Shown one piece after another: positions 2,319 through 16,643 of a stretch of DNA of 16,673 nt. The stretch is from Candidatus Micrarchaeia archaeon. Its GTDB lineage: Archaea; Micrarchaeota; Micrarchaeia; Burarchaeales; JACRGF01. Where the stretch lies: the NCBI GenBank assembly GCA_038870455.1, contig JAWCPB010000026.1, positions 1 through 16,673 of the forward strand, in the 5' to 3' direction. The notes below the pieces were generated by a model. It did not search any database. It had not been told where the DNA came from and saw nothing but the letters and a program-made list of their open reading frames with translations. The translations under genes were made by a program, and so were the position numbers. How positions within the stretch are numbered: the stretch's first letter is position 1; each line of letters opens with the position of its first letter.

Positions 2319-3446
2319 TTGATTTCGGGGAAGGAAATTCAAGAGGTTATCCGAAGGCACAGGTATTCCAGGCCCTGCATCGCGACCCTCGGCTCCCACT
2401 CCGCGCTGGATATCTGCTTGGGGGCAAAGAAGGAAGGCCTGAAAACCATTGTCGTTTGCCAGAAGGGAAGGGAAGAGACTTACGCGAGGTTCTACAAGTC
2501 GGACGGCAAGGCGGGCGTAGTGGATGAAGTCATCGTGCTCGACAGGTTTGCCGACGTTGTCAAGGATGAGGTGCAGGAAAAGCTGAGGAGGGCGCAGGCG
2601 GTGTTCGTGCCCCACAGGTCTTTCGAAGTTTATGTGGGCTTCGACAGGATTGAGAACGATTTTCTAGTGCCGCTTTTCGGCAACCGCGCGCTGTTGAGGG
2701 CTGAAGAGCGCGACGCACCGCGCAACCAGTATTTCCTGCTCGAGAAAGCCGGCATCCGCACGCCCAAGCGGTTCGCCTCGCCGAAGGACATTGACAGAAC
2801 CGTGATCGTCAAGGTCGCGGAGGCCAAAAGAACTTACGAGCGTGCTTTCTTTTTCGCCCACGACCTCGAGGACTATACGAGGGAAAGCACCCAGCTGATT
2901 GCGAAAGGAGTTATCACGAAAGAGGGGCTGGAGAAGGCTGTTATCGAAGAAGTCGTGTGCGGGGCGCAGTGCAATTTCAACTTCTTCCACTCGCCTCTCA
3001 CAGGCAGGCTTGAATTGCTCGGGACTGACGTGAGAAGGCAGACAAACCTAGACGGCGTGTTACGGCTGCCAGCGGACGAGCAGCTGGAGCTGCTGAAGCG
3101 CATCAGGCTGACAACCATCGAGGCAGGCCATGTGGCAGTCACCTTACGCGAGTCGCTTCTCGAGAGCGTCCTGAAGATGGGCGAGGCGTTTGCGAAAGCA
3201 TCCAAAGAAGAGTATCCCCCGGGAGTCATAGGGCCATTCGCGCTGCAGGGCGCGCTCGTGCCAGAGGAGGGGAGGGAAGAGCCCGTGGTGTTTGATGTGA
3301 GCCTCCGCATGCCGGGCTCGCCGGGAACGCGCTTCACGCCGTACAGCGAGTACCTGCACGGGGAGAGCATGAGCGTCGGCCAAAGGGTGGCGAGGGAAAT
3401 AAAGCAGGCGGCAAGGCAAGGAAGGATAGAGAAAGTGGTGACATGA
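2319..3446 (+). CDS. purP: PurP-family ATP-grasp protein (FAICAR synthetase-like), paralogue 1
   Basis: IATLGSHSALDI, FVPHRSF, LFGNR, GPFALQG, DVSLRMPGSPG and GQRVAREIK motifs. Likely TTG start at 2319 after GGTGGGGGA; the ORF track's upstream extension is antisense to guaAB. Confidence 0.88.
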   Translation: MISGKEIQEVIRRHRYSRPCIATLGSHSALDICLGAKKEGLKTIVVCQKGREETYARFYKSDGKAGVVDEVIVLDRFADVVKDEVQEKLRRAQAVFVPHRSFEVYVGFDRIENDFLVPLFGNRALLRAEERDAPRNQYFLLEKAGIRTPKRFASPKDIDRTVIVKVAEAKRTYERAFFFAHDLEDYTRESTQLIAKGVITKEGLEKAVIEEVVCGAQCNFNFFHSPLTGRLELLGTDVRRQTNLDGVLRLPADEQLELLKRIRLTTIEAGHVAVTLRESLLESVLKMGEAFAKASKEEYPPGVIGPFALQGALVPEEGREEPVVFDVSLRMPGSPGTRFTPYSEYLHGESMSVGQRVAREIKQAARQGRIEKVVT

Positions 3447-4519
3447 TCAAAAAAGAGGAGATAGAGCTCATCCTCAAGAAATACGACAGGAAGAAGTTGC
3501 GCATAGCCACGCTGTGCTCCCACTCCTCGCTCCAGATTTTCAACGGTGCGTGGGAGGAAGGGTTCAGGACAATCGGCATTCGTGTGGGCGAAAACCGTGT
3601 CACCTATGATGCATTTCCATACGCCAAGCCCGACATGTTCATCACTGTTGAGGAGTTCAGGGATGTGGAAAGATTCCAGGAGCTTCTCATTGAGCACAAC
3701 GCCATTCTCGTGCCGCACGGCTCGCTCATTGAATTCGTGGGGAGGAGGATAGAGGAGCTGGCAGTACCAATTCTCGGAAACAGAAAGGCCTTGTTATGGG
3801 AGAACGACAGACAGAAGATGATTAAGTGGATGCAGAAAGCAGGCCTCAGGATTCCAAAGACGCTCGAGCCGGGCAAAATAGACAGACCCTGCATTGTCAA
3901 ATTTCCGGGCGCAAAAGGCGGGCGGGGGTATGTGGTTGTGAAGAACGAGGCTGAGTTCGAGCGAAAGATGCGCGAGAGGGGCATAACTGATGAGATGCTG
4001 GCCAAATCAGTCATACAGGAGTACATTGTCGGCATACGCTTCTATCCCCACTACTTCTACTCGCTGTTCCACGACGATGGATTCCGCGTGGGCGAAGGGC
4101 GGCTTGAGCTGCTTGGCATGGACCAGAGGGTAGAAGATAATATAGATGAGATTTACAGGGCGAACACTTTCGGCTATTCGCCGGAACCGCAATTCACAGT
4201 AGTCGGCAATGCCCCAATTGTCGCGCGTGAGTCGCTGCTGGACCAGCTGCTGACCATAGGGCAGAAGACTGTCGATGCGAGCATCGAGCTGTTCGGAGGC
4301 ATTCCGGGCCCATTCTGTGTGGAGACCACGTGCACTGAGAACCTCGAGTTCTATGTATTCGAAATATCCTCGCGTATCGTGGCCGGCACAAATCTCTTCC
4401 CCCGTGGCTCAACCTATTCGTGGTTCACCTTCAACGAGCCAATGAGCATGGGCAGGAGGATTGCGCGCGAGATAAAAATTGCGGCGAAGAAAAACGCGCT
4501 GGAAAAGCTCGTCTACTAG
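3443..4519 (+). CDS. purP: 5-formaminoimidazole-4-carboxamide ribonucleotide synthetase (PurP), paralogue 2
   Basis: IATLCSHSSLQI, VPHGS, GAKGGRGY, GPFCVET, FEISSRIVAGTN and MSMGRRIAREIK motifs. ATGA overlap with the upstream paralogue. Confidence 0.92.
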   Translation: MIKKEEIELILKKYDRKKLRIATLCSHSSLQIFNGAWEEGFRTIGIRVGENRVTYDAFPYAKPDMFITVEEFRDVERFQELLIEHNAILVPHGSLIEFVGRRIEELAVPILGNRKALLWENDRQKMIKWMQKAGLRIPKTLEPGKIDRPCIVKFPGAKGGRGYVVVKNEAEFERKMRERGITDEMLAKSVIQEYIVGIRFYPHYFYSLFHDDGFRVGEGRLELLGMDQRVEDNIDEIYRANTFGYSPEPQFTVVGNAPIVARESLLDQLLTIGQKTVDASIELFGGIPGPFCVETTCTENLEFYVFEISSRIVAGTNLFPRGSTYSWFTFNEPMSMGRRIAREIKIAAKKNALEKLVY

Positions 4520-4768: not shown

Positions 4769-6169
4769 TTATCTTTTCCGGTGCAGCAAGAGCCAGGCAA
4801 GCGCGGCGAGTGCAGCGCTCGCCACCACCCACGCGCGCCAGTCAAAACCGCTTTTCTTCCGCCTTTCGGGGATGTAGCTCGATGGCAGGCCTGCGGGCGC
4901 GGGCTGGCCGGCAGACAGGGCGGACTCGAGCGTCGCAAGGGCATTCTCCACCGCGTCGAGCTCGGAAGAGCTGGCGGCTTTGTCGAAATCATGTATTATG
5001 AGAAGGAGAGTTGCGTTGAGTTCGGTTGCGTTTTCACCGAGCGAGGCACGTGCCGCGAGCGCATCGCGCACAGCAGCAATGCGCGCCTCTACTGCGGCCA
5101 GGCGCTGGAGGAGGGCGTCTGCGGCTTGCGTGGCGTTCGCGTAGAGCAGAGCGAAGTCGACAAAAGCCTGGTCAGAGGCATCGAACGCATGCTGTCTGCA
5201 CGAGCCGTCAATTTTGTCGGCGGCCTGCTCGAGCTGGTCGGTGAAGTTTCGGATTTCGGAAAATCTCTGAAGTTGAGCGAAGCGCGTGGCAAAGGCAGAG
5301 ATGTTGGCTATTGCGGCTTCTGTGTTGTTGGCGCAGGCCAGCAGGCGCGCCCGCCAGCCCTCCCTCCTTTCAGTTTCGGCATAGACCTGCGCGCTCACGT
5401 TTTCGGGCGCGAGAATGAGAAGGAGCTTTGTCCGAGCCAGCCCAACCTCCTGCTCGGCTTCGGCGAGCGCGGAATAGTTGAATGCTGATAGAGGACAGAA
5501 GTAATAGCCGGCGGTAAGAAAGAGTGGATTGAGCGAGATGTTCAGCGCGAGCGCGCGCAGGGAGGCGAGGGAGGAGAGCGCGCGCTCAAGCTGACGGGAA
5601 GCGGGCGTTGTGGCGTTGGGGAGGTTACGGATGGCATCGAGCGCGGCATTGAGCTCCGCATCCATGGCCGCGAGCGCGAGCGAGTAATCCACGATGGTGT
5701 GAACGAAAGGCTGGCCGGCGTCGAGCGCGAGCCCACGACAGATTGGCGTGTAGCAGGAAAGCAGGCAGGCATCGAAGTCGCTGCAGGGATACCTGTCTAT
5801 GCCGATGAGCCGCCGGCACTCGCTCTCGGCGGGCTCGCGCGAGGCATTGAAGGCCAGCAGAAGGGCGGCGAGGCGCGCGGACTGCGCGGGCGCGGGAAGG
5901 ACGAGCGAAGGCGAGAGGTTGGCAGTGTGCGAGTAGGCAGACAGGCGCGCGCGAATTTCGCTTTCCGCTGTGACGAGCGATGCGTTCCCTCCCGCATCCG
6001 TAACTGCGATGAACGAGGGAACGCCGTTGATGAGAACGAGAGAGGCGTTGTCATCGAGGAAAAGCGCCTGCGCGCTCTCGTTGAAGTCCAAGTAGCCGCT
6101 GATGAGCACGTCGGGGGAAACCGCGTGCGCCGCCAAGGCGAGAAGTAAGAGCGCGGCGATAGGGCGCAT
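4769..6169 (-). CDS. Secreted, C-terminally membrane-anchored protein with Cys-rich motif and helical/coiled-coil stalk
   Basis: N-terminal signal peptide (MRPIAALLLLALAAHA), Cys cluster CRRLIGIDRYPCSDFDACLLSCYTPIC, several N-x-S/T sequons, and a C-terminal hydrophobic helix followed by HRKR. Confidence 0.8.
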   Translation of the reverse strand: MRPIAALLLLALAAHAVSPDVLISGYLDFNESAQALFLDDNASLVLINGVPSFIAVTDAGGNASLVTAESEIRARLSAYSHTANLSPSLVLPAPAQSARLAALLLAFNASREPAESECRRLIGIDRYPCSDFDACLLSCYTPICRGLALDAGQPFVHTIVDYSLALAAMDAELNAALDAIRNLPNATTPASRQLERALSSLASLRALALNISLNPLFLTAGYYFCPLSAFNYSALAEAEQEVGLARTKLLLILAPENVSAQVYAETERREGWRARLLACANNTEAAIANISAFATRFAQLQRFSEIRNFTDQLEQAADKIDGSCRQHAFDASDQAFVDFALLYANATQAADALLQRLAAVEARIAAVRDALAARASLGENATELNATLLLIIHDFDKAASSSELDAVENALATLESALSAGQPAPAGLPSSYIPERRKKSGFDWRAWVVASAALAALAWLLLHRKR

Positions 6170-8095: not shown

Positions 8096-9082
8096 ATGCG
8101 CGTGCTTGACTTGGGAAAATGCACTGAAGTCCCCCAGCCGAGTGCAGAAAAATGCAGGGGCAGAGCGGCTTGGGCCGATTTTTCGGAGGAAGAGGCGCGG
8201 GAGGGGTTGGCTTCTCTCGAGATTCCGCTTGAAGTCTTCGAGAGGCTTGAGGAGGCCGAATACCCTTCGTATGAGGAGCTCGAGGCTTGGACGGGCGTGG
8301 TCTTCATCGACCTTGATTACAAGGAGGGAATAAAGAAACGGCGCGTATACGCTTTCTTTAACGAACGCACGCTCGCAACGGTCGGCGCGGGCGAGATTTT
8401 CGCTTCTTTCCTGAAGACTGCTGGAGAAAAGCGCTTGCGGGTTGTGAAAAAAGAGGCCATTATAGTCTACCTCCTGCAGGAACTCACAAAGAAATTCGAG
8501 TACCTTGCGAACAGGCTGGAGGACGAGGTGGAAGGGATTGAGGAAAGGGTGGTCAAAGAGGCTGGCGGGTTGGTGATAAGCAACCTGCTTGACCTCAAGC
8601 GCGCCCTCCTTGTGGCCAACAAAGTATTCTGGCACACGCGCGAATTTGCCTTCGACCTGAAGGTGCACAGAGTGAAGTTCCTGCGTGTGGACGAGAGGAT
8701 TGGGCACGCACTGGACGACATAAGCCACGCGCTCATCTACCTCATCGACCTCAATGCCACTTACCGTGAGGTGCTCACCGACTCGCTGGATGTGCATCAC
8801 GCGGCGATAAGCAACAGGATAAACGAGAAGATAAAGAGGCTCACTGCAATAACCATCCTCCTCGCAATACTCGCCACGGCCAGCGTCGTGCCGAACACAG
8901 TGGCCACGATTTTCGGCATCCCGTATTTCCCTATTCAGAGCGACAGGATAATCGCAACGCTCGCGGGCTTCAGCCTCTTCCCGTGGCACGTCATCCTATT
9001 CCTGATTCTCGCAAGCGTGGTAATCCCCGCGGCGTGGATGCTGTGGTGGTGGCAGGGCTTCAAACCGGAGGCCGAGGAGTAA
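8096..9082 (+). CDS. CorA/ZntB-family divalent cation transporter with a non-canonical signature
   Basis: Helical funnel region (LANRLEDEVEGIEE...LLDLKRALL), SNRINEKIKRLT and two C-terminal TM helices. The usual GMN motif reads GIP. Confidence 0.82.
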   Translation: MRVLDLGKCTEVPQPSAEKCRGRAAWADFSEEEAREGLASLEIPLEVFERLEEAEYPSYEELEAWTGVVFIDLDYKEGIKKRRVYAFFNERTLATVGAGEIFASFLKTAGEKRLRVVKKEAIIVYLLQELTKKFEYLANRLEDEVEGIEERVVKEAGGLVISNLLDLKRALLVANKVFWHTREFAFDLKVHRVKFLRVDERIGHALDDISHALIYLIDLNATYREVLTDSLDVHHAAISNRINEKIKRLTAITILLAILATASVVPNTVATIFGIPYFPIQSDRIIATLAGFSLFPWHVILFLILASVVIPAAWMLWWWQGFKPEAEE

Positions 9083-9118
9083 ATATTTAAAGCGCGACAC
9101 AAAGCGCAATTTGAGGTG
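9083..9118 (+). promoter_or_regulatory. TATA box and Shine-Dalgarno sequence for the DUF350/Hint-Tim44 operon
   Basis: ATATTTAAA at 9083-9091 and GAGGTG at 9113-9118, before the ATG at 9124. Confidence 0.55.
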
Positions 9119-9123
9119 GTCTG

Positions 9124-9390
9124 ATGGTGTTGAGCGCTACAGTGACCGAAAACATGACCCTTGCAGTGCTGTACACACTGCTGGGAGGAATTCTGGGAAT
9201 CTTTTTGATAGGCATTGCGACCTTCATCGTGCCGAAGATAGTGGACAGGCTCACTCCGAGAATAAACGACGAGAGAGAGCTCGCGCGGGGAAACCTTGCA
9301 GTGGCAAGTTATGTGGGGCAGATAACGCAGGCAGTTATATTGGGGATAAGCATAATCATCGCAGCTGCGATAATATCCGGAATATTCTGA
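9124..9390 (+). CDS. DUF350-family (YjfL-like) small membrane protein
   Basis: Two hydrophobic helices flanking DRLTPRINDERELARGNLAVA, matching the family LTP..D..E...GN.AVA pattern. Good SD. Confidence 0.8.
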   Translation: MVLSATVTENMTLAVLYTLLGGILGIFLIGIATFIVPKIVDRLTPRINDERELARGNLAVASYVGQITQAVILGISIIIAAAIISGIF

Positions 9391-9402
9391 AGGGGCAGAC
9401 GA

Positions 9403-12273
9403 ATGCTCCGGCCCGGCGTTTTGCAACGCCTTTTTCTCATCCTCGCACTCTCGTCCCTGGCAGCGGCAAGAGGAGGCGGCGGGTGCTTCCTGCCGGACAC
9501 GCTCGTGCTGACAACAAGCGGGGAAAAGCCCATCAAATCGGTTTCTGCTGGAGAAGAGGTTGTCACGCCGGATGGGATCGCGCGCGTCGTTGTGCTGTAT
9601 GCCACTAACGCATCAAAATACTACGAGATAACCACTGCGACCACATCGGTGAATGTGACCGGAGAGCACCTCTTGTACATAGGGGACGGCAGGTTTAAGG
9701 AGGCGGCAAAGCTCGCGGCAGGCGACACAGTGGTGGTCTATTCCAACAACACTGCCGAGCTTGACCGCGTTGTTTCCATTGTTCCACACAAAAAAGAGAC
9801 TGAAGCGTACAACCTGCTTGTGGACAGCAAGGGCATTTTCCTCGCGAATTCCATCATCGCGCACAACAAGGGCTCTTTCCTGCCGGACACGCTCGTGCTG
9901 ACAGCTGACGGCTCGTGGAAGAGGATAAGCGAGGTGAAGCCGGGTGACGTGCTGAAGGCTTTCACTTACGAGGGCGAGGTGATCAACGCGAGCGTGATCG
10001 AAGTGTATACGGCGAGCGCGCGTGAGTATTACGTAATCAGGACGGAGAGCTATGAGGTGAACGTCACTGCAGAGCACCCGTTTTACTTGGGCGACGGCGT
10101 GTTCGTGACTGCCGAGCGGCTGGAGCCCGGCGACAGAATATTCGTTTTCAATGGAAGCGGCCTCTCTCCGGAGAGAGTTGTTTCAAAGGAGACGGTGCTT
10201 GCGAACGTAACAACGTACAACCCGAGGACGGAATGGCCGAACACGTATTTCGCAAACTTCATCGCGGTGCACAACAAGGGCGGCGGGTGTTTTGCAGCAG
10301 GGACACGGATAGCTACGCCTGAGGGCGAGCGGCACATTGAGGCGGTAAAGGCGGGGGACATGGTGACCGCGGTGGCGCCTGACGGCTCTGTGAAAAAGGC
10401 GGTTGTGCGCGGCGTGTTCACGACCAGAACGCGCATGCTCCAGCTCCGCACGGAAAGAAGAGCGGTAAACACGACAGCCGAGCATCCTTTCCTCACTCCG
10501 GGCGGGAGTTTTAAGGAGGCGTCTGAGCTTTCTGCCGGCGATGTGGTGATGGTGATTGGCGAGAACGGAGAATTGCGGGAGGAGAGGATAGTTTCCGCAA
10601 CCTATCTTGGGGAGGAGCGTGTGTATAATTTGGAGATTGAGGAGCCGTTCACGTTTATTGCAAACGGTTTTGTTGTGCACAACAAGGGAGGCGGAGGAGG
10701 CAGCGGAAGCACGCCTTACACGCACGCGACGATGTGCGGCCTGCCCACGCGCCTGAGGTTGACCAACGGCTCTTACGCGAACGGAACCCAGTGCATCTAC
10801 GTGTATTTCCTGAAAACCAACATAAACAGCGCGCGTACGCTTGAAAACTGCGTGAAGGCAACACAGGAGGCATGGCGCTGTGCAAACCTAACCAATTTTG
10901 CAATATCGAGGGAGCTTCGGTTCGAATGCGCGACGCGCGAGGAGTGCCTGGGCTACAGCGAGATGAATGTATCCGGAATCGGAATGGTGAAAATCGTCGT
11001 GCCCCCTTCGCTGGAGGAGCAACTTTGTGGGATGGCCATTTCGCTACTGATGTTCGGAGTAGTGACGTGCGGCCTTTTCTGGATAATACGCCGGAAAAGC
11101 CGCCTAAGCGCAGACCTCGATTATTGTTATCCCTCTTCGCAAGTGGATGCAAAGGCAGCCAAAACCGCAAAGCTCTTGGCTTACCTCAAAAGCATAGACC
11201 CGCGGTGGGATCCCGATGAGCTGAAGAGGATCGCGAGAACTACTTTTTTCAAACTTCAAGAGTGCTGGCAATCGCGCGAGTACGCCCCCATGCAGCCGTT
11301 GCTCATGCCTAACCTCTATGCGCAGCACGTCAGCCAGCTTGAATCGCTTAAGAGGAACCACGAGATAAACAAGCTGGATGACCTCCAGTTGAGGAAGCTG
11401 GAAATCGTGCACCTCAGGCACTATGCAAAGAAAGACCAGCAAGAGTTCACCGTCCTTGTGGAAGCGAGCGCGAGGGACTACTACGTGGATGACAGAGATG
11501 GAAGGTTCTTGAGGGGCGACTCCAAGCCAGTGGTTTTCCAAGAATTCTGGGTATTCCAGAGGCAGGGAAACAACTGGCTTTTGCGGGAAATAAATCAGAC
11601 GCGCGAGTCGGATGCGCTCGCTGAAGAAAATTTTGTGGAGGAGCTGACGCCCTGGCAGCTGAAAAACATTTACGGTGCGCTCGCGGCACCCCCCATTGAA
11701 AAAGCGCCTTGGCTCGATGAGGCGCTTAGAAAAAAGGCGGACAGGGTTCACCGCATGCTGAATTTTCTTTCCTCTACGGACAAGAGCTGGGACGAGGATT
11801 TCATGAAAATGCGCGCGAGAGAAATTTTCGTGCGCGTGCTCACAGCATTCGAAAAAAGGGATCTGACTGCCGTCGAGCCTTTCCTACTGCCCGAAGCCGC
11901 TTCGCATTTCCGTAGCCAGATTGATGCAATGAAGAAGGAGAACAGAAAGGTGGAGTACAGGAATATGTGCGTGAGGAAAGTCGACATCGTCCTCGTCAAG
12001 AACTACAACGACAGGGATAGGGATGAGTTCACCGCGCGCATAAGCGCGCATGCGCAGAGAATAGAGTACAAAGGGGAAAAAATTACGAGGAAAGACGAGT
12101 ACGTCACCCCCTGGGAGGAATACTGGAGTTTCAGGAAACAAAACGGGGAGTGGATGTTGGTTGAGGTTGTCCCGCCAGCGCGCACGCGCTCAATAATCGA
12201 AGAAGAGAATATCGATGAAGAGGCTGCGAAAGGACAAGTGCAGTGGTACTACACGAAAGACAGGGCGCTGTAG
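9403..12273 (+). CDS. Membrane protein: signal peptide, 3 tandem Hint (intein-like/BIL) domains, Cys-rich ectodomain, TM helix and 2 Tim44-like domains
   Basis: Three C/S-F..(G/D)T starts, three TxEH block-B motifs and three HN ends. TM helix at ~11029-11088. Duplicated WD..(E/D)...AR..F...Q/T...R...EFT...A...E(F/Y)W.F.(R/K)...W.L Tim44-like units. Confidence 0.9.
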   Translation: MLRPGVLQRLFLILALSSLAAARGGGGCFLPDTLVLTTSGEKPIKSVSAGEEVVTPDGIARVVVLYATNASKYYEITTATTSVNVTGEHLLYIGDGRFKEAAKLAAGDTVVVYSNNTAELDRVVSIVPHKKETEAYNLLVDSKGIFLANSIIAHNKGSFLPDTLVLTADGSWKRISEVKPGDVLKAFTYEGEVINASVIEVYTASAREYYVIRTESYEVNVTAEHPFYLGDGVFVTAERLEPGDRIFVFNGSGLSPERVVSKETVLANVTTYNPRTEWPNTYFANFIAVHNKGGGCFAAGTRIATPEGERHIEAVKAGDMVTAVAPDGSVKKAVVRGVFTTRTRMLQLRTERRAVNTTAEHPFLTPGGSFKEASELSAGDVVMVIGENGELREERIVSATYLGEERVYNLEIEEPFTFIANGFVVHNKGGGGGSGSTPYTHATMCGLPTRLRLTNGSYANGTQCIYVYFLKTNINSARTLENCVKATQEAWRCANLTNFAISRELRFECATREECLGYSEMNVSGIGMVKIVVPPSLEEQLCGMAISLLMFGVVTCGLFWIIRRKSRLSADLDYCYPSSQVDAKAAKTAKLLAYLKSIDPRWDPDELKRIARTTFFKLQECWQSREYAPMQPLLMPNLYAQHVSQLESLKRNHEINKLDDLQLRKLEIVHLRHYAKKDQQEFTVLVEASARDYYVDDRDGRFLRGDSKPVVFQEFWVFQRQGNNWLLREINQTRESDALAEENFVEELTPWQLKNIYGALAAPPIEKAPWLDEALRKKADRVHRMLNFLSSTDKSWDEDFMKMRAREIFVRVLTAFEKRDLTAVEPFLLPEAASHFRSQIDAMKKENRKVEYRNMCVRKVDIVLVKNYNDRDRDEFTARISAHAQRIEYKGEKITRKDEYVTPWEEYWSFRKQNGEWMLVEVVPPARTRSIIEEENIDEEAAKGQVQWYYTKDRAL
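9484..9867 (+). other. Hint domain 1 (128 aa, CFLPDT...TGEH...YNL...AHN)
   Basis: Cys1, TxxH block B and terminal His-Asn; next residue is Lys. No endonuclease insert. Confidence 0.9.
9874..10275 (+). other. Hint domain 2 (134 aa, SFLPDT...TAEH...YNP...VHN)
   Basis: Ser1, TAEHPF and terminal His-Asn; next residue is Lys. Confidence 0.88.
10288..10683 (+). other. Hint domain 3 (132 aa, CFAAGT...TAEH...VYNL...VHN)
   Basis: Cys1, TAEHPF, VYNLEI and terminal His-Asn; next residue is Lys. Confidence 0.92.
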
Positions 12274-15779: not shown

Positions 15780-16107
15780 AGCCCCCGGAGGGATTTTCAA
15801 GCCCTTTTCCGCCAACGCTTTTCGGCGCGCCGGAAAAGGGTTTGCGCCGTCAGGCGCTCCTTTTTCCGCCAACGCTTTTCCGAAGCGTCGGAAAAGGGTT
15901 GTTTGAACCCTCGACCTACCGCTTTCTTTCCCTTTCCAGAGGAGGAAAGGTCCGTAACCCCTTCCCAAAGAGGGGGGAAGGTCCAGGACGAAGGGGGAAT
16001 ACCACCCTTTGTCTTACGAGGCGGTCGCTCTCTAGCTAACCACTTTTCCGCCAACGCTTTTGCCGAGCGAAGCGAGGGAAAAGGGTTGACCGCTGAGCTA
16101 CGGAGGC
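15780..16107 (-). tRNA. tRNA-Thr(CGU) with three introns (positions 20/21, 37/38, 59/60)
   Basis: Exons 16107-16089, 16031-16015, 15923-15902 and 15793-15780 join to GCCTCCGTAGCTCAGCGGTAGAGCGACCGCCTCGTAAGCGGTAGGTCGAGGGTTCAAATCCCTCCGGGGGCT (72 nt). This folds into a full cloverleaf with a U73 discriminator and no encoded CCA. Confidence 0.93.
15801..16088 (-). repeat. Three copies of a ~45-55 nt hairpin element inside the tRNA introns
   Basis: Identical 18-mer TTTTCCGCCAACGCTTTT (+ strand) at 15805-15822, 15862-15879 and 16044-16061. Each copy is followed by GGAAAAGGGTT, giving a self-complementary unit. Confidence 0.85.
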
Positions 16108-16157
16108 TATATATTTTTGCACCAAAGCTTTTAAATTCAGTTTGCAAAAAAGCCCAC

Positions 16158-16643
16158 ATGGATGAAGGAGAATGGAAAAAATATGAGCGTGAGCTTAGGC
16201 GAAAGGAAGAGAAGCAGCTCATTTCGATTTACAACTCACTTGCTGATTTGATGAAAGTGTTTATACCACCGGAAGCGTTTGACAGGCTTAATAACCCCCA
16301 GGGATGGTTTGAGCGTTTCATGAAATGGAGCAAGCTTGATTTCATCATACGGAGAAACTTCGGAACAGCGAACAATATGTTCTTCGAAATGGTTGAGCGA
16401 CTCGGGGAAGAAGAGAGGAAACATCTGGAGAACGTGGCGGCCGCGTATCCGGGCGGGATTGCCAGCCAAATGATTCAACGATACGTAGAGCTGGCTAGGG
16501 AGAAAGGGAGGAGCGAGGAGTCCGTACTCAAAATGTTTCCAAGCCTGAAAAAGAAGGAGAAAAGGGAGAGGGAGAAAAAGGAACCGCTCAAGGAACCAGG
16601 AATCCAAAAGGGAAAGCGCGGGGCAAGAAAGGTGCCCGCATAG
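16158..16643 (+). CDS. Hypothetical protein (161 aa) with a charged, Lys-rich C-terminus
   Basis: ATG at 16158 lies about 25 nt after TTTTAAAT. The ORF track's upstream extension from 15903 overlaps the tRNA and is spurious. No recognisable motif. Confidence 0.65.
   Translation: MDEGEWKKYERELRRKEEKQLISIYNSLADLMKVFIPPEAFDRLNNPQGWFERFMKWSKLDFIIRRNFGTANNMFFEMVERLGEEERKHLENVAAAYPGGIASQMIQRYVELAREKGRSEESVLKMFPSLKKKEKREREKKEPLKEPGIQKGKRGARKVPA

Follow-up and report, generated by a model that had tools for sequence, protein, structure and literature searches.

Protein splicing, the maturation of Hedgehog and the release of toxins are all driven by Hint domains, on which protein engineering also relies heavily; what, then, would an archaeon do with three Hints in a row at the N-terminus of a membrane protein? 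The question is raised by one open reading frame (ORF) at 9403–12273(+) of the window, by which we mean the whole stretch of 16,673 nucleotides that was analyzed (contig JAWCPB010000026.1 of a Candidatus Micrarchaeia archaeon, whose genome is 1.04 Mb long and 90% complete). The ORF is open and encodes 956 aa, and its translation reads MLRPGVLQRLFLILALSSLAAA / RGGGG / C28..HN155 / KG / S158..HN291 / KGGG / C296..HN427 / KGGGGGSGS before it continues into a Cys-rich domain; translation and Pfam together define it as a Hint array, a transmembrane (TM) helix and a double Tim44-like protein. A sequence-only reading of this DNA had described a signal peptide, three Hints, a Cys-rich segment, one TM helix and two Tim44-like repeats, which the protein matches in every detail. 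We find that the -1 Gly, the terminal His-Asn and the +1 Lys/+2 Gly of the Hints are invariant among the best 120 homologues and that the gene is paired with that of a small DUF350 membrane protein; the Hints are probably active autoprocessing domains that resemble type-A bacterial intein-like (BIL) domains.

Fold and junctions of the Hint domains

The protein opens with a signal peptide (residues 1–22, 9403–9468(+)) whose sequence predicts a signal-peptidase I site, AAA/R, so that cleavage would leave the five-residue flank RGGGG (9469–9483(+); read from the translation and from homologue flanks) ahead of the first Hint. Hint A (residues 28–155, 9484–9867(+)) runs from C28 to HN155 and is followed by K-G, Hint B (residues 158–291, 9874–10275(+)) from S158 to HN291 and then KGGG, and Hint C (residues 296–427, 10288–10683(+)) from C296 to HN427 and then KGGGGGSGS; their block B motifs are TGEH, TAEH and TAEH, respectively. 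All three were located by hidden Markov models (HMMs) and assigned to types by clustering of the Hints; the structural model and Foldseek add to the evidence, as does a PDB sequence match (2lwy_A) for Hint C. The translation bears out the earlier claim that the nucleophiles C, S and C, the TxEH motif and the terminal HN are kept, with Lys at +1. The domains are 128, 134 and 132 aa long and therefore have no room for a homing endonuclease, whose absence had also been noted before. Ser158 is encoded by TCT, and a 99%-identical sister genome likewise carries Ser at this position.

Three Hint stretches are recognized in Pfam, by PF01079 (4.9e-20, 72.5 bits against a cut-off of 29.7; three matched stretches) and by PF07591, PT-HINT (6e-20, 72.3 bits against 27.7; three stretches); PF14890 (1.7e-17, 64.1 bits against 35.8) matches four stretches, and NCBIfam TIGR01445 marks three intein N-terminal regions (73.7 bits against 24.5). 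Elsewhere in the genome, no further HMM match to Hint or Tim44 was found. An AlphaFold2 (AF2) model of residues 23–436, computed from a 30-row alignment, predicts three all-beta modules (pLDDT 86), and Foldseek with this model returned 66 PDB matches at E<=1e-3, those listed being BIL domains, mini-inteins and the Hedgehog Hint. The top match is the BIL2 domain of Tetrahymena (6y75, 3e-9), at ~21% sequence identity to the model; further top matches are the DnaB and RecA mini-inteins and the Clostridium thermocellum BIL 2lwy (TMt 0.84), and the Hedgehog Hint appears at E near 5e-6. By sequence, the best PDB match is again a bacterial intein-like domain, 2lwy_A, at 1.6e-9 with Hint C. The HMM scores above curated cut-offs and the predicted fold place the domains in the Hint superfamily, so the check that the sequence-only reading had proposed, by HMM and structure prediction, came out in its favor.

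Within the superfamily, the domains have the sequence features of type-A BILs: an N-terminal Cys or Ser, a C-terminal His-Asn and no Cys, Ser or Thr at +1. With C. thermocellum 2LWY and its kind they also share the mini-Hint size, the TxxH motif and location in an exported protein, export being predicted here. The BILs known to us, however, are single domains inside variable secreted proteins, whereas this family has one to four of them back to back at the very start of a conserved membrane protein, shows no variation at the -1 Gly or the +1 Lys/+2 Gly, has position-specific subtypes and includes archaea. BIL2 of the Tetrahymena thermophila BUBL1 locus (6Y75, 6TMM) shares the fold, and its thioester is resolved by the epsilon-amine of a lysine; it differs in being eukaryotic and cytoplasmic, in its ubiquitin-like flanks and in the position of the nucleophilic lysine, which lies inside the downstream ubiquitin-like domain instead of at +1. 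No ubiquitin-like domain appeared in the Pfam scan of the window protein, whose likeness to a BUBL-type BIL is in fold only.

Other Hint-bearing systems fit less well. PT-HINT toxin systems share the above-threshold PF07591 match and an exported protein, but a polymorphic toxin was rejected: there is no toxin domain, and a Cys-rich domain, a TM helix and two Tim44 domains lie downstream of the Hints. PADLOC, run on both proteins of the gene pair, returned nothing relevant except a chance match to a homing-endonuclease tail (E 0.018). A canonical class 1 intein would carry Cys, Ser or Thr at +1, where Lys stands here; nor do the Hints interrupt a conserved host site, as nothing but RGGGG stands between the signal peptide and Hint A, and the Hints are consecutive. 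In Hog domains of the Hedgehog type, a sterol-recognition region follows the Hint and the terminal His-Asn is missing, whereas each Hint of the window ends in HN and passes directly into K-G. A lipoprotein was also set aside: GGGG-C was read as no lipobox, and Arg precedes the glycines. Several presumably extracellular Hints in a row, with an invariant -1 Gly and Lys-Gly and an N-flank of five residues, fit no described use of the fold.

To examine the junctions across the family, we took the three Hints of the window as the basis of a profile and searched with it the best 120 of at least 711 protein clusters that were found with the cytoplasmic part as query (E<=1e-3; identity ~50%). Precomputed Hint Pfam families are recorded for 113 of these 120 and are absent from the other seven; with the window-derived profile, all 120 have at least one Hint, whole or cut at the protein start. 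Among the 323 complete Hints (31 more are partial), the residue at -1 is Gly in 323, the last two residues are His-Asn in 323, and +1 and +2 are Lys and Gly in 323 and 323; the first residue is Cys in 321 and Ser in two, namely Hint B of the window protein and Hint B of P0009. Block B reads TxxH in 319 of the 323. Ahead of the first Hint, 100 of 103 proteins carry RGGGG, with a family consensus of ..WA|RGGGGC, and the linkers consist of Lys and one to seven Gly (KG in 97 cases, KGGG in 68, KGGGGG in 41, others in 19), with KGGGSG as the one exception. The collection of homologues and the count of Hints per protein, also proposed by the sequence-only reading, gave one Hint in 8 proteins, two in 23, three in 56 and four in 33, counts that take in truncated proteins and a few split domain hits.

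The 288 Hints of the 95 complete proteins cluster by position into three types, A being the first, B the second and C the third and fourth. The order A-B-C(-C), with A-B counted too, holds in 84 of the 95: A-B-C in 47, the window protein being one, A-B-C-C in 26 and A-B in 11; B-C occurs in five and other arrangements in seven. Type B, common to the bacterial proteins, is the most conserved. The archaeal orthologues G008 (1104 aa) and G010 (717 aa) are A-B-C-C and B alone, respectively. The window is 37–42% identical to bacterial rows over the Hint region and 41–50% over the rest of the protein, and mean column identity of the Hint region is 63% (alignment A4). The similarity of the Hints to the cytoplasmic part in identity, together with the fixed order of types, indicates that the Hints evolve with the gene and not as mobile inserts.

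These data bear on another idea, in which selfish mini-inteins or BILs entered a Tim44-like membrane protein and spread there into a tandem array, useless to their host. Hint number does vary from one to four between orthologues, and the C type is sometimes doubled (the 26 A-B-C-C proteins). On the other hand, no homing endonuclease is present, the N-flank is only five residues long, three types that diverged long ago occupy one and the same site and keep their order in at least 8 phyla, and archaeal Hints form clusters of their own just as the archaeal Tim44 parts form a clade of their own. Nor was a Hint-less form verified among short relatives. A search for these gave 159 proteins, most of them on contigs of 1–3 kb and so fragments; P0153, on a long contig, starts inside a Hint, and P0143, catalogued as a 406-aa homologue free of Hints, is a two-Hint gene (L067:2862–5185) that is broken by a frameshift where the poly-G run follows its second Hint. 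Linkers of this kind may be a frequent source of miscalls in long-read assemblies. We therefore give the selfish account very little credence, and the earlier view that these are not selfish inteins gains support from the three old paralogous types, their fixed order and a conservation like that of the cytoplasmic part.

Proposed chemistry at the Hint junctions

Strict conservation falls on precisely the chemical positions, an argument for a chemistry that is in use, and we place at roughly 0.6 the probability that the Hints are active, type-A BIL-like autoprocessing domains. If instead they were non-catalytic structural or binding modules, that is, a permanent ectodomain in which intein-like residues are kept for folding, one could understand why the whole Hint is well conserved (the 63% column identity) and why, in most bacteria, the Hints are the sole folded part outside the cell. 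The positions that never vary, though, are the chemical ones and their flanks, and neither the terminal Asn nor the -1 Gly has an evident role in the structure; inactive Hint relatives usually lose the catalytic positions; permanent structural modules thus seem quite improbable. The type-A BIL-like reading proposed from sequence stands as regards the Hint fold, the catalytic residues and the missing Cys, Ser or Thr at +1; its further part, that the cassette cleaves, sheds or remodels the outer end of the protein, keeps the standing of a suggestion.

In the autoprocessing scheme that we favor, the large protein would be exported through Sec by means of its signal peptide and cut before Arg23, and the three mini-Hints would fold outside the cell to act as single-turnover enzymes of the type-A BIL kind. 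Each Hint would form a (thio)ester at the invariant Gly/Cys(Ser) junction and free itself by cyclization of its terminal Asn, and an amine of the +1 Lys, either the alpha-amine freed by that cut or the epsilon-amine of the side chain, would take over the glycyl (thio)ester. The Hints would leave serially and the Gly linkers would be stitched to an outward tail, RGGGG-KG-KGGG-KGGGGG..., on the Cys-rich stalk; the TM helix would anchor the product, and the two Tim44-like (NTF2-fold) domains at the membrane face would stay inside and work with the DUF350 protein. Such a route has relatives in the literature. Type-A BILs, with a C-terminal His-Asn and no +1 nucleophile, can splice by thioester formation, Asn cyclization and attack by the freed amine (PMC4031507; Mills, Johnson, Perler), and for BIL2 the providers of its structure report an isopeptide bond with the epsilon-amine of a lysine (PMC8616854), so a lysine-directed Hint has precedent.

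Whether the flanks are joined or discarded is argued less strongly than activity itself. Our argument is that an invariant five-residue N-flank and an invariant +1 Lys/+2 Gly would be expected if the flanks end in the product; cleavage alone need not fix them, and we take them as pointing to ligation. Cleavage only, at one or both ends, would see the array shed, either as one-way maturation or as a release conditional on redox state, metal ions, pH or heat, and would leave a new KGGGGG N-terminus. Cleavage dominates in type-A BILs (PMC4031507) and all cleavage residues are kept in the homologues; moreover, the sequencing runs that contain this stretch carry hot-springs metagenome labels only and belong to one study, two of whose runs contain half or more of the window's words and one of which may be the source, so thermal rates could be high. 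Because it leaves the fixed RGGGG flank (100/103) and the +1 Lys/+2 Gly (323/323) unexplained, we regard pure cleavage as possible but doubtful.

Ligation, if it occurs, could take a more radical form. In this extracytoplasmic, lysine-directed version, the epsilon-amine of the +1 Lys would replace the Cys, Ser or Thr of inteins, and the Gly linkers would be joined by isopeptide bonds after Asn cyclization; the invariant +1 Lys would allow it, and we offer it only as a less likely variant. If the lysine is the acceptor, the family would bring a new prokaryotic splicing chemistry and, coming from a hot-spring organism, ready-made thermostable parts. Use of the epsilon-amine would amount to a new mechanistic class of splicing, repeated one to four times per protein and found across hundreds of species of bacteria as well as in a handful of DPANN archaea, and the DUF350 and Tim44-like parts would then use or sense the product at the membrane.

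A different fate for the (thio)esters is transfer to an outside amine or hydroxyl, for which a polyamine, a lipid head group or a lysine on another surface protein could serve. Every Hint would act a single time, the array would provide several shots, and the process would resemble Hedgehog-to-cholesterol or BUBL-to-target-lysine transfer. The top structural match, BIL2, is reported to conjugate its N-flank to lysines of other proteins (PMC8616854), DUF350/YjfL genes are reported with polyamine genes in PspA operons (PMC11237479), and the invariant -1 Gly would, by chemical reasoning, give the least hindered thioester. Transfer is nevertheless unlikely in our view: the cargo would be only RGGGG, KG, KGGG or upstream Hints, which is odd, the window contains no polyamine genes, and the invariance of Lys-Gly after the Hint (323/323) is better explained if the lysine takes part.

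Several points weigh against autoprocessing with ligation. The case for it draws on sequence comparison and predicted models. Cleavage prevails over splicing in type-A BILs (PMC4031507), so ligation may be minor even if the Hints are active. By our own chemical reasoning, a KG linker that bears both a free amine and a thioester could cyclize on itself instead of ligating. Hint B of the window starts with Ser, the weaker nucleophile that only 2 of the 323 Hints have. In most bacteria, loss of the Hints would leave no folded part outside, which makes the purpose of the array obscure, and the Hints may stay attached and do something else. Finally, two short homologues on long contigs, P0171 and P0186, look Hint-less, as judged by protein only.

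The membrane-anchored part and its DUF350 partner

Behind the Hints, a Cys-rich alpha/beta ectodomain spans about residues 439–532 (10717–10998(+)), as judged from its six Cys, all within residues 445–515, and from a second AF2 model that covers residues 428–956. This tail model (pLDDT 88) predicts a small alpha/beta Cys-rich domain (model residues 12–105, pLDDT about 80–89), one long helix and two helix-plus-sheet domains. The TM helix (residues 541–562, 11023–11088(+)) is the strongest hydrophobic segment of the protein, corresponds to helix 110–139 of the tail model and is followed by RRKSR. The Cys-rich ectodomain is confined to the archaeal clade (the window, G008, G010 and P0002–P0009), and the tail after the last Hint is accordingly longer in P0001–P0009 (493–555 aa) than in most bacterial proteins (~440–450 aa); an ESM Atlas search with residues 436–545, the Cys-rich part, gave no usable match. 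The 518-aa outer part holds 12 N-x-S/T sequons and the 386-aa inner part one, a distribution that fits the N-out, C-in topology of a type-I membrane protein in an archaeon that glycosylates its surface proteins.

Inside, Tim44-like domain 1 (11167–11598(+)) was assigned by Pfam (78.6 bits) and Foldseek, and domain 2 (11773–12168(+)) by Pfam (55.4 bits), the tail model and Foldseek. PF04280 matches two stretches overall (3.1e-35, 121.9 bits against a cut-off of 29.6), and Foldseek with the tail model finds the Tim44 C-terminal domain (3qk9, 2cw9, 2fxt), NTF2-like proteins and chain d of the mitoribosome, which we take to be mL45. The above-threshold HMM match and the predicted NTF2-like fold identify both as Tim44-like (PF04280) domains. 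With the Tim44 C-terminal domain, mL45 and bacterial TimA-type proteins, they share family, fold and a place at the inner membrane face beside a TM anchor; here, in contrast, the domain is doubled, fused to an outward Hint array and has no PDB sequence relative, the Tim44-like profile having drawn only two chance-level rows (E 0.29 and 0.58) from the PDB sequences. Assignment to the TimA or Tim44_TimA adaptor families (NCBIfam NF033779, NF033778) was rejected, the scores lying below cut-off at 71 against 80 bits and 20.8 against 200. In the literature, our searches turned up no paper in which Tim44 and Hint terms occur together. The architecture is thus undescribed in print as far as we have searched, which agrees with the earlier impression that it could not be assigned to a described system.

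The partner gene, which the sequence-only reading had overlooked, makes the module one of two genes. At 9124–9390(+), it encodes a YjfL-family DUF350 membrane protein of 88 aa with two hydrophobic segments, recognized from the translation and from a marginal match to PF03994 (4.1e-6, 27.3 bits, cut-off 26); on the same strand, 12 nt separate its stop codon from the ATG of the Hint gene downstream. We compared 80 loci from species-representative genomes, the best of 276 relatives. In 70 of them, a homologous small ORF precedes the large gene on the same strand; the other ten leave no room for one, as their large gene begins 153 nt or less from the end of the locus. Every one of the 70 loci with upstream DNA thus keeps the pair. 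Of the small ORFs, 49 of 51 are recognized by Pfam as DUF350 (E<=0.01), and the two other archaeal orthologues likewise carry an upstream DUF350. The PF03994 match is shared with YjfL-family proteins of PspA and polyamine operons, of which 4-TM and 8-TM forms are described (PMC11237479); the unit here is a single 2-TM one of ~89 aa, paired with a Hint-Tim44 protein.

Directly upstream of DUF350, 41 of 79 bacterial loci have a LemA gene (PF04011, 1.5e-57) on the same strand, for example L024:1643–2197(+). Many bacteria thus carry a three-gene row of LemA, DUF350 and Hint-Tim44. In the window, the gene upstream of DUF350 is CorA, and the LemA gene of the genome lies on another contig (G000:C2:1495–1941). 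DUF350/YjfL is described as an uncharacterized TM component of PspA envelope-stress operons that also hold polyamine-metabolism genes (PMC11237479), although no PspA or polyamine genes were found in the window. Because of that association, and because LemA often precedes the pair, a role in envelope or membrane maintenance is a reasonable guess and no more. Complex prediction of DUF350 with the TM and Tim44 part (residues 532–956), given alignments as input, returned no answer (score 0.00), and we count it neither way. The strict pairing ties together two widespread domains whose prokaryotic roles are obscure, DUF350/YjfL and Tim44-like, and gives a handle on both.

By eye, the spacer between CorA and DUF350 (9080–9123) contains an A/T-rich, TATA-like run, TATTTAAA, at 9084–9091, and GAGGTG and AAGGGG stand 5 nt before the ATG of DUF350 and 6 nt before that of the Hint gene, respectively. 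These signals fit one transcript with two ribosome-binding sites. No RNA run was listed as containing positions 9100–12273.

Distribution, origin and neighboring genes

The sequence-only reading had spoken of an archaeal membrane protein, but the architecture is no archaeal peculiarity: the family is widespread and mainly bacterial, and the archaeal copies form a small clade. The source names of the protein clusters include Thermodesulfobacteriota/Deltaproteobacteria, Verrucomicrobia, Tepidisphaeraceae and Micrarchaeia, and databases give these proteins generic names only. In contigs from one genome per species, 276 of 334 pattern matches encode a relative, nearly all of them bacterial. Represented among the best 80 loci are Syntrophales, Desulfarculales, Desulfobacteraceae and Myxococcales; Verrucomicrobiota, Lentisphaerae, Kiritimatiellaeota and Planctomycetota; Terriglobia, Anaerolineales and Auribacterota; and Legionella saoudiensis. 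The only cultured carrier among these loci is L. saoudiensis LS-1 (L090, NZ_LN901324.1:873336–882526), whose version has two Hints, 743 aa and an upstream DUF350.

Within the window's own class, four of 301 genomes carry the family, the window's genome included (four of 169 among those of high quality), and the four carriers fall in a single order, where they represent three genera in three families. For the cytoplasmic part, an unrooted tree from a quick search (53 rows, with SH-aLRT as the only support values) joins the three archaeal rows in one group (100). This group has a long stem (0.6) and shares its side of a starred branch (97) with two Planctomycetota rows. From the genome counts taken together with the unrooted tree, we infer transfer of the gene from bacteria to this archaeal order. 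It appears, then, that a bacterial module was acquired by a small group of Micrarchaeia and fitted with a Cys-rich, probably glycosylated stalk.

The remaining neighbors in the window are housekeeping genes: purH, a split guaA, two PurP-type genes, glnA, a PALP enzyme and a LeuA-like synthase. The PurP-type genes, at 2346–3446(+) and 3443–4519(+), are tandem paralogues that overlap by 4 nt and each combine DUF1246 with DUF1297, presumably FAICAR synthetases; the pair adjoins purH and the split guaA (GATase at 716–1294, ATP-PPase at 1295–2305). Near the far end, 15903–16643(+) encodes a Lys/Glu-rich ORF of 246 aa that has no Pfam match. At 4769–6169(-) lies an Ala/Leu-rich protein of 466 aa, also without a Pfam match, with a signal-like N-terminus, many N-x-S/T sequons and a hydrophobic C-terminal anchor followed by HRKR; from these features, it is probably a surface glycoprotein.

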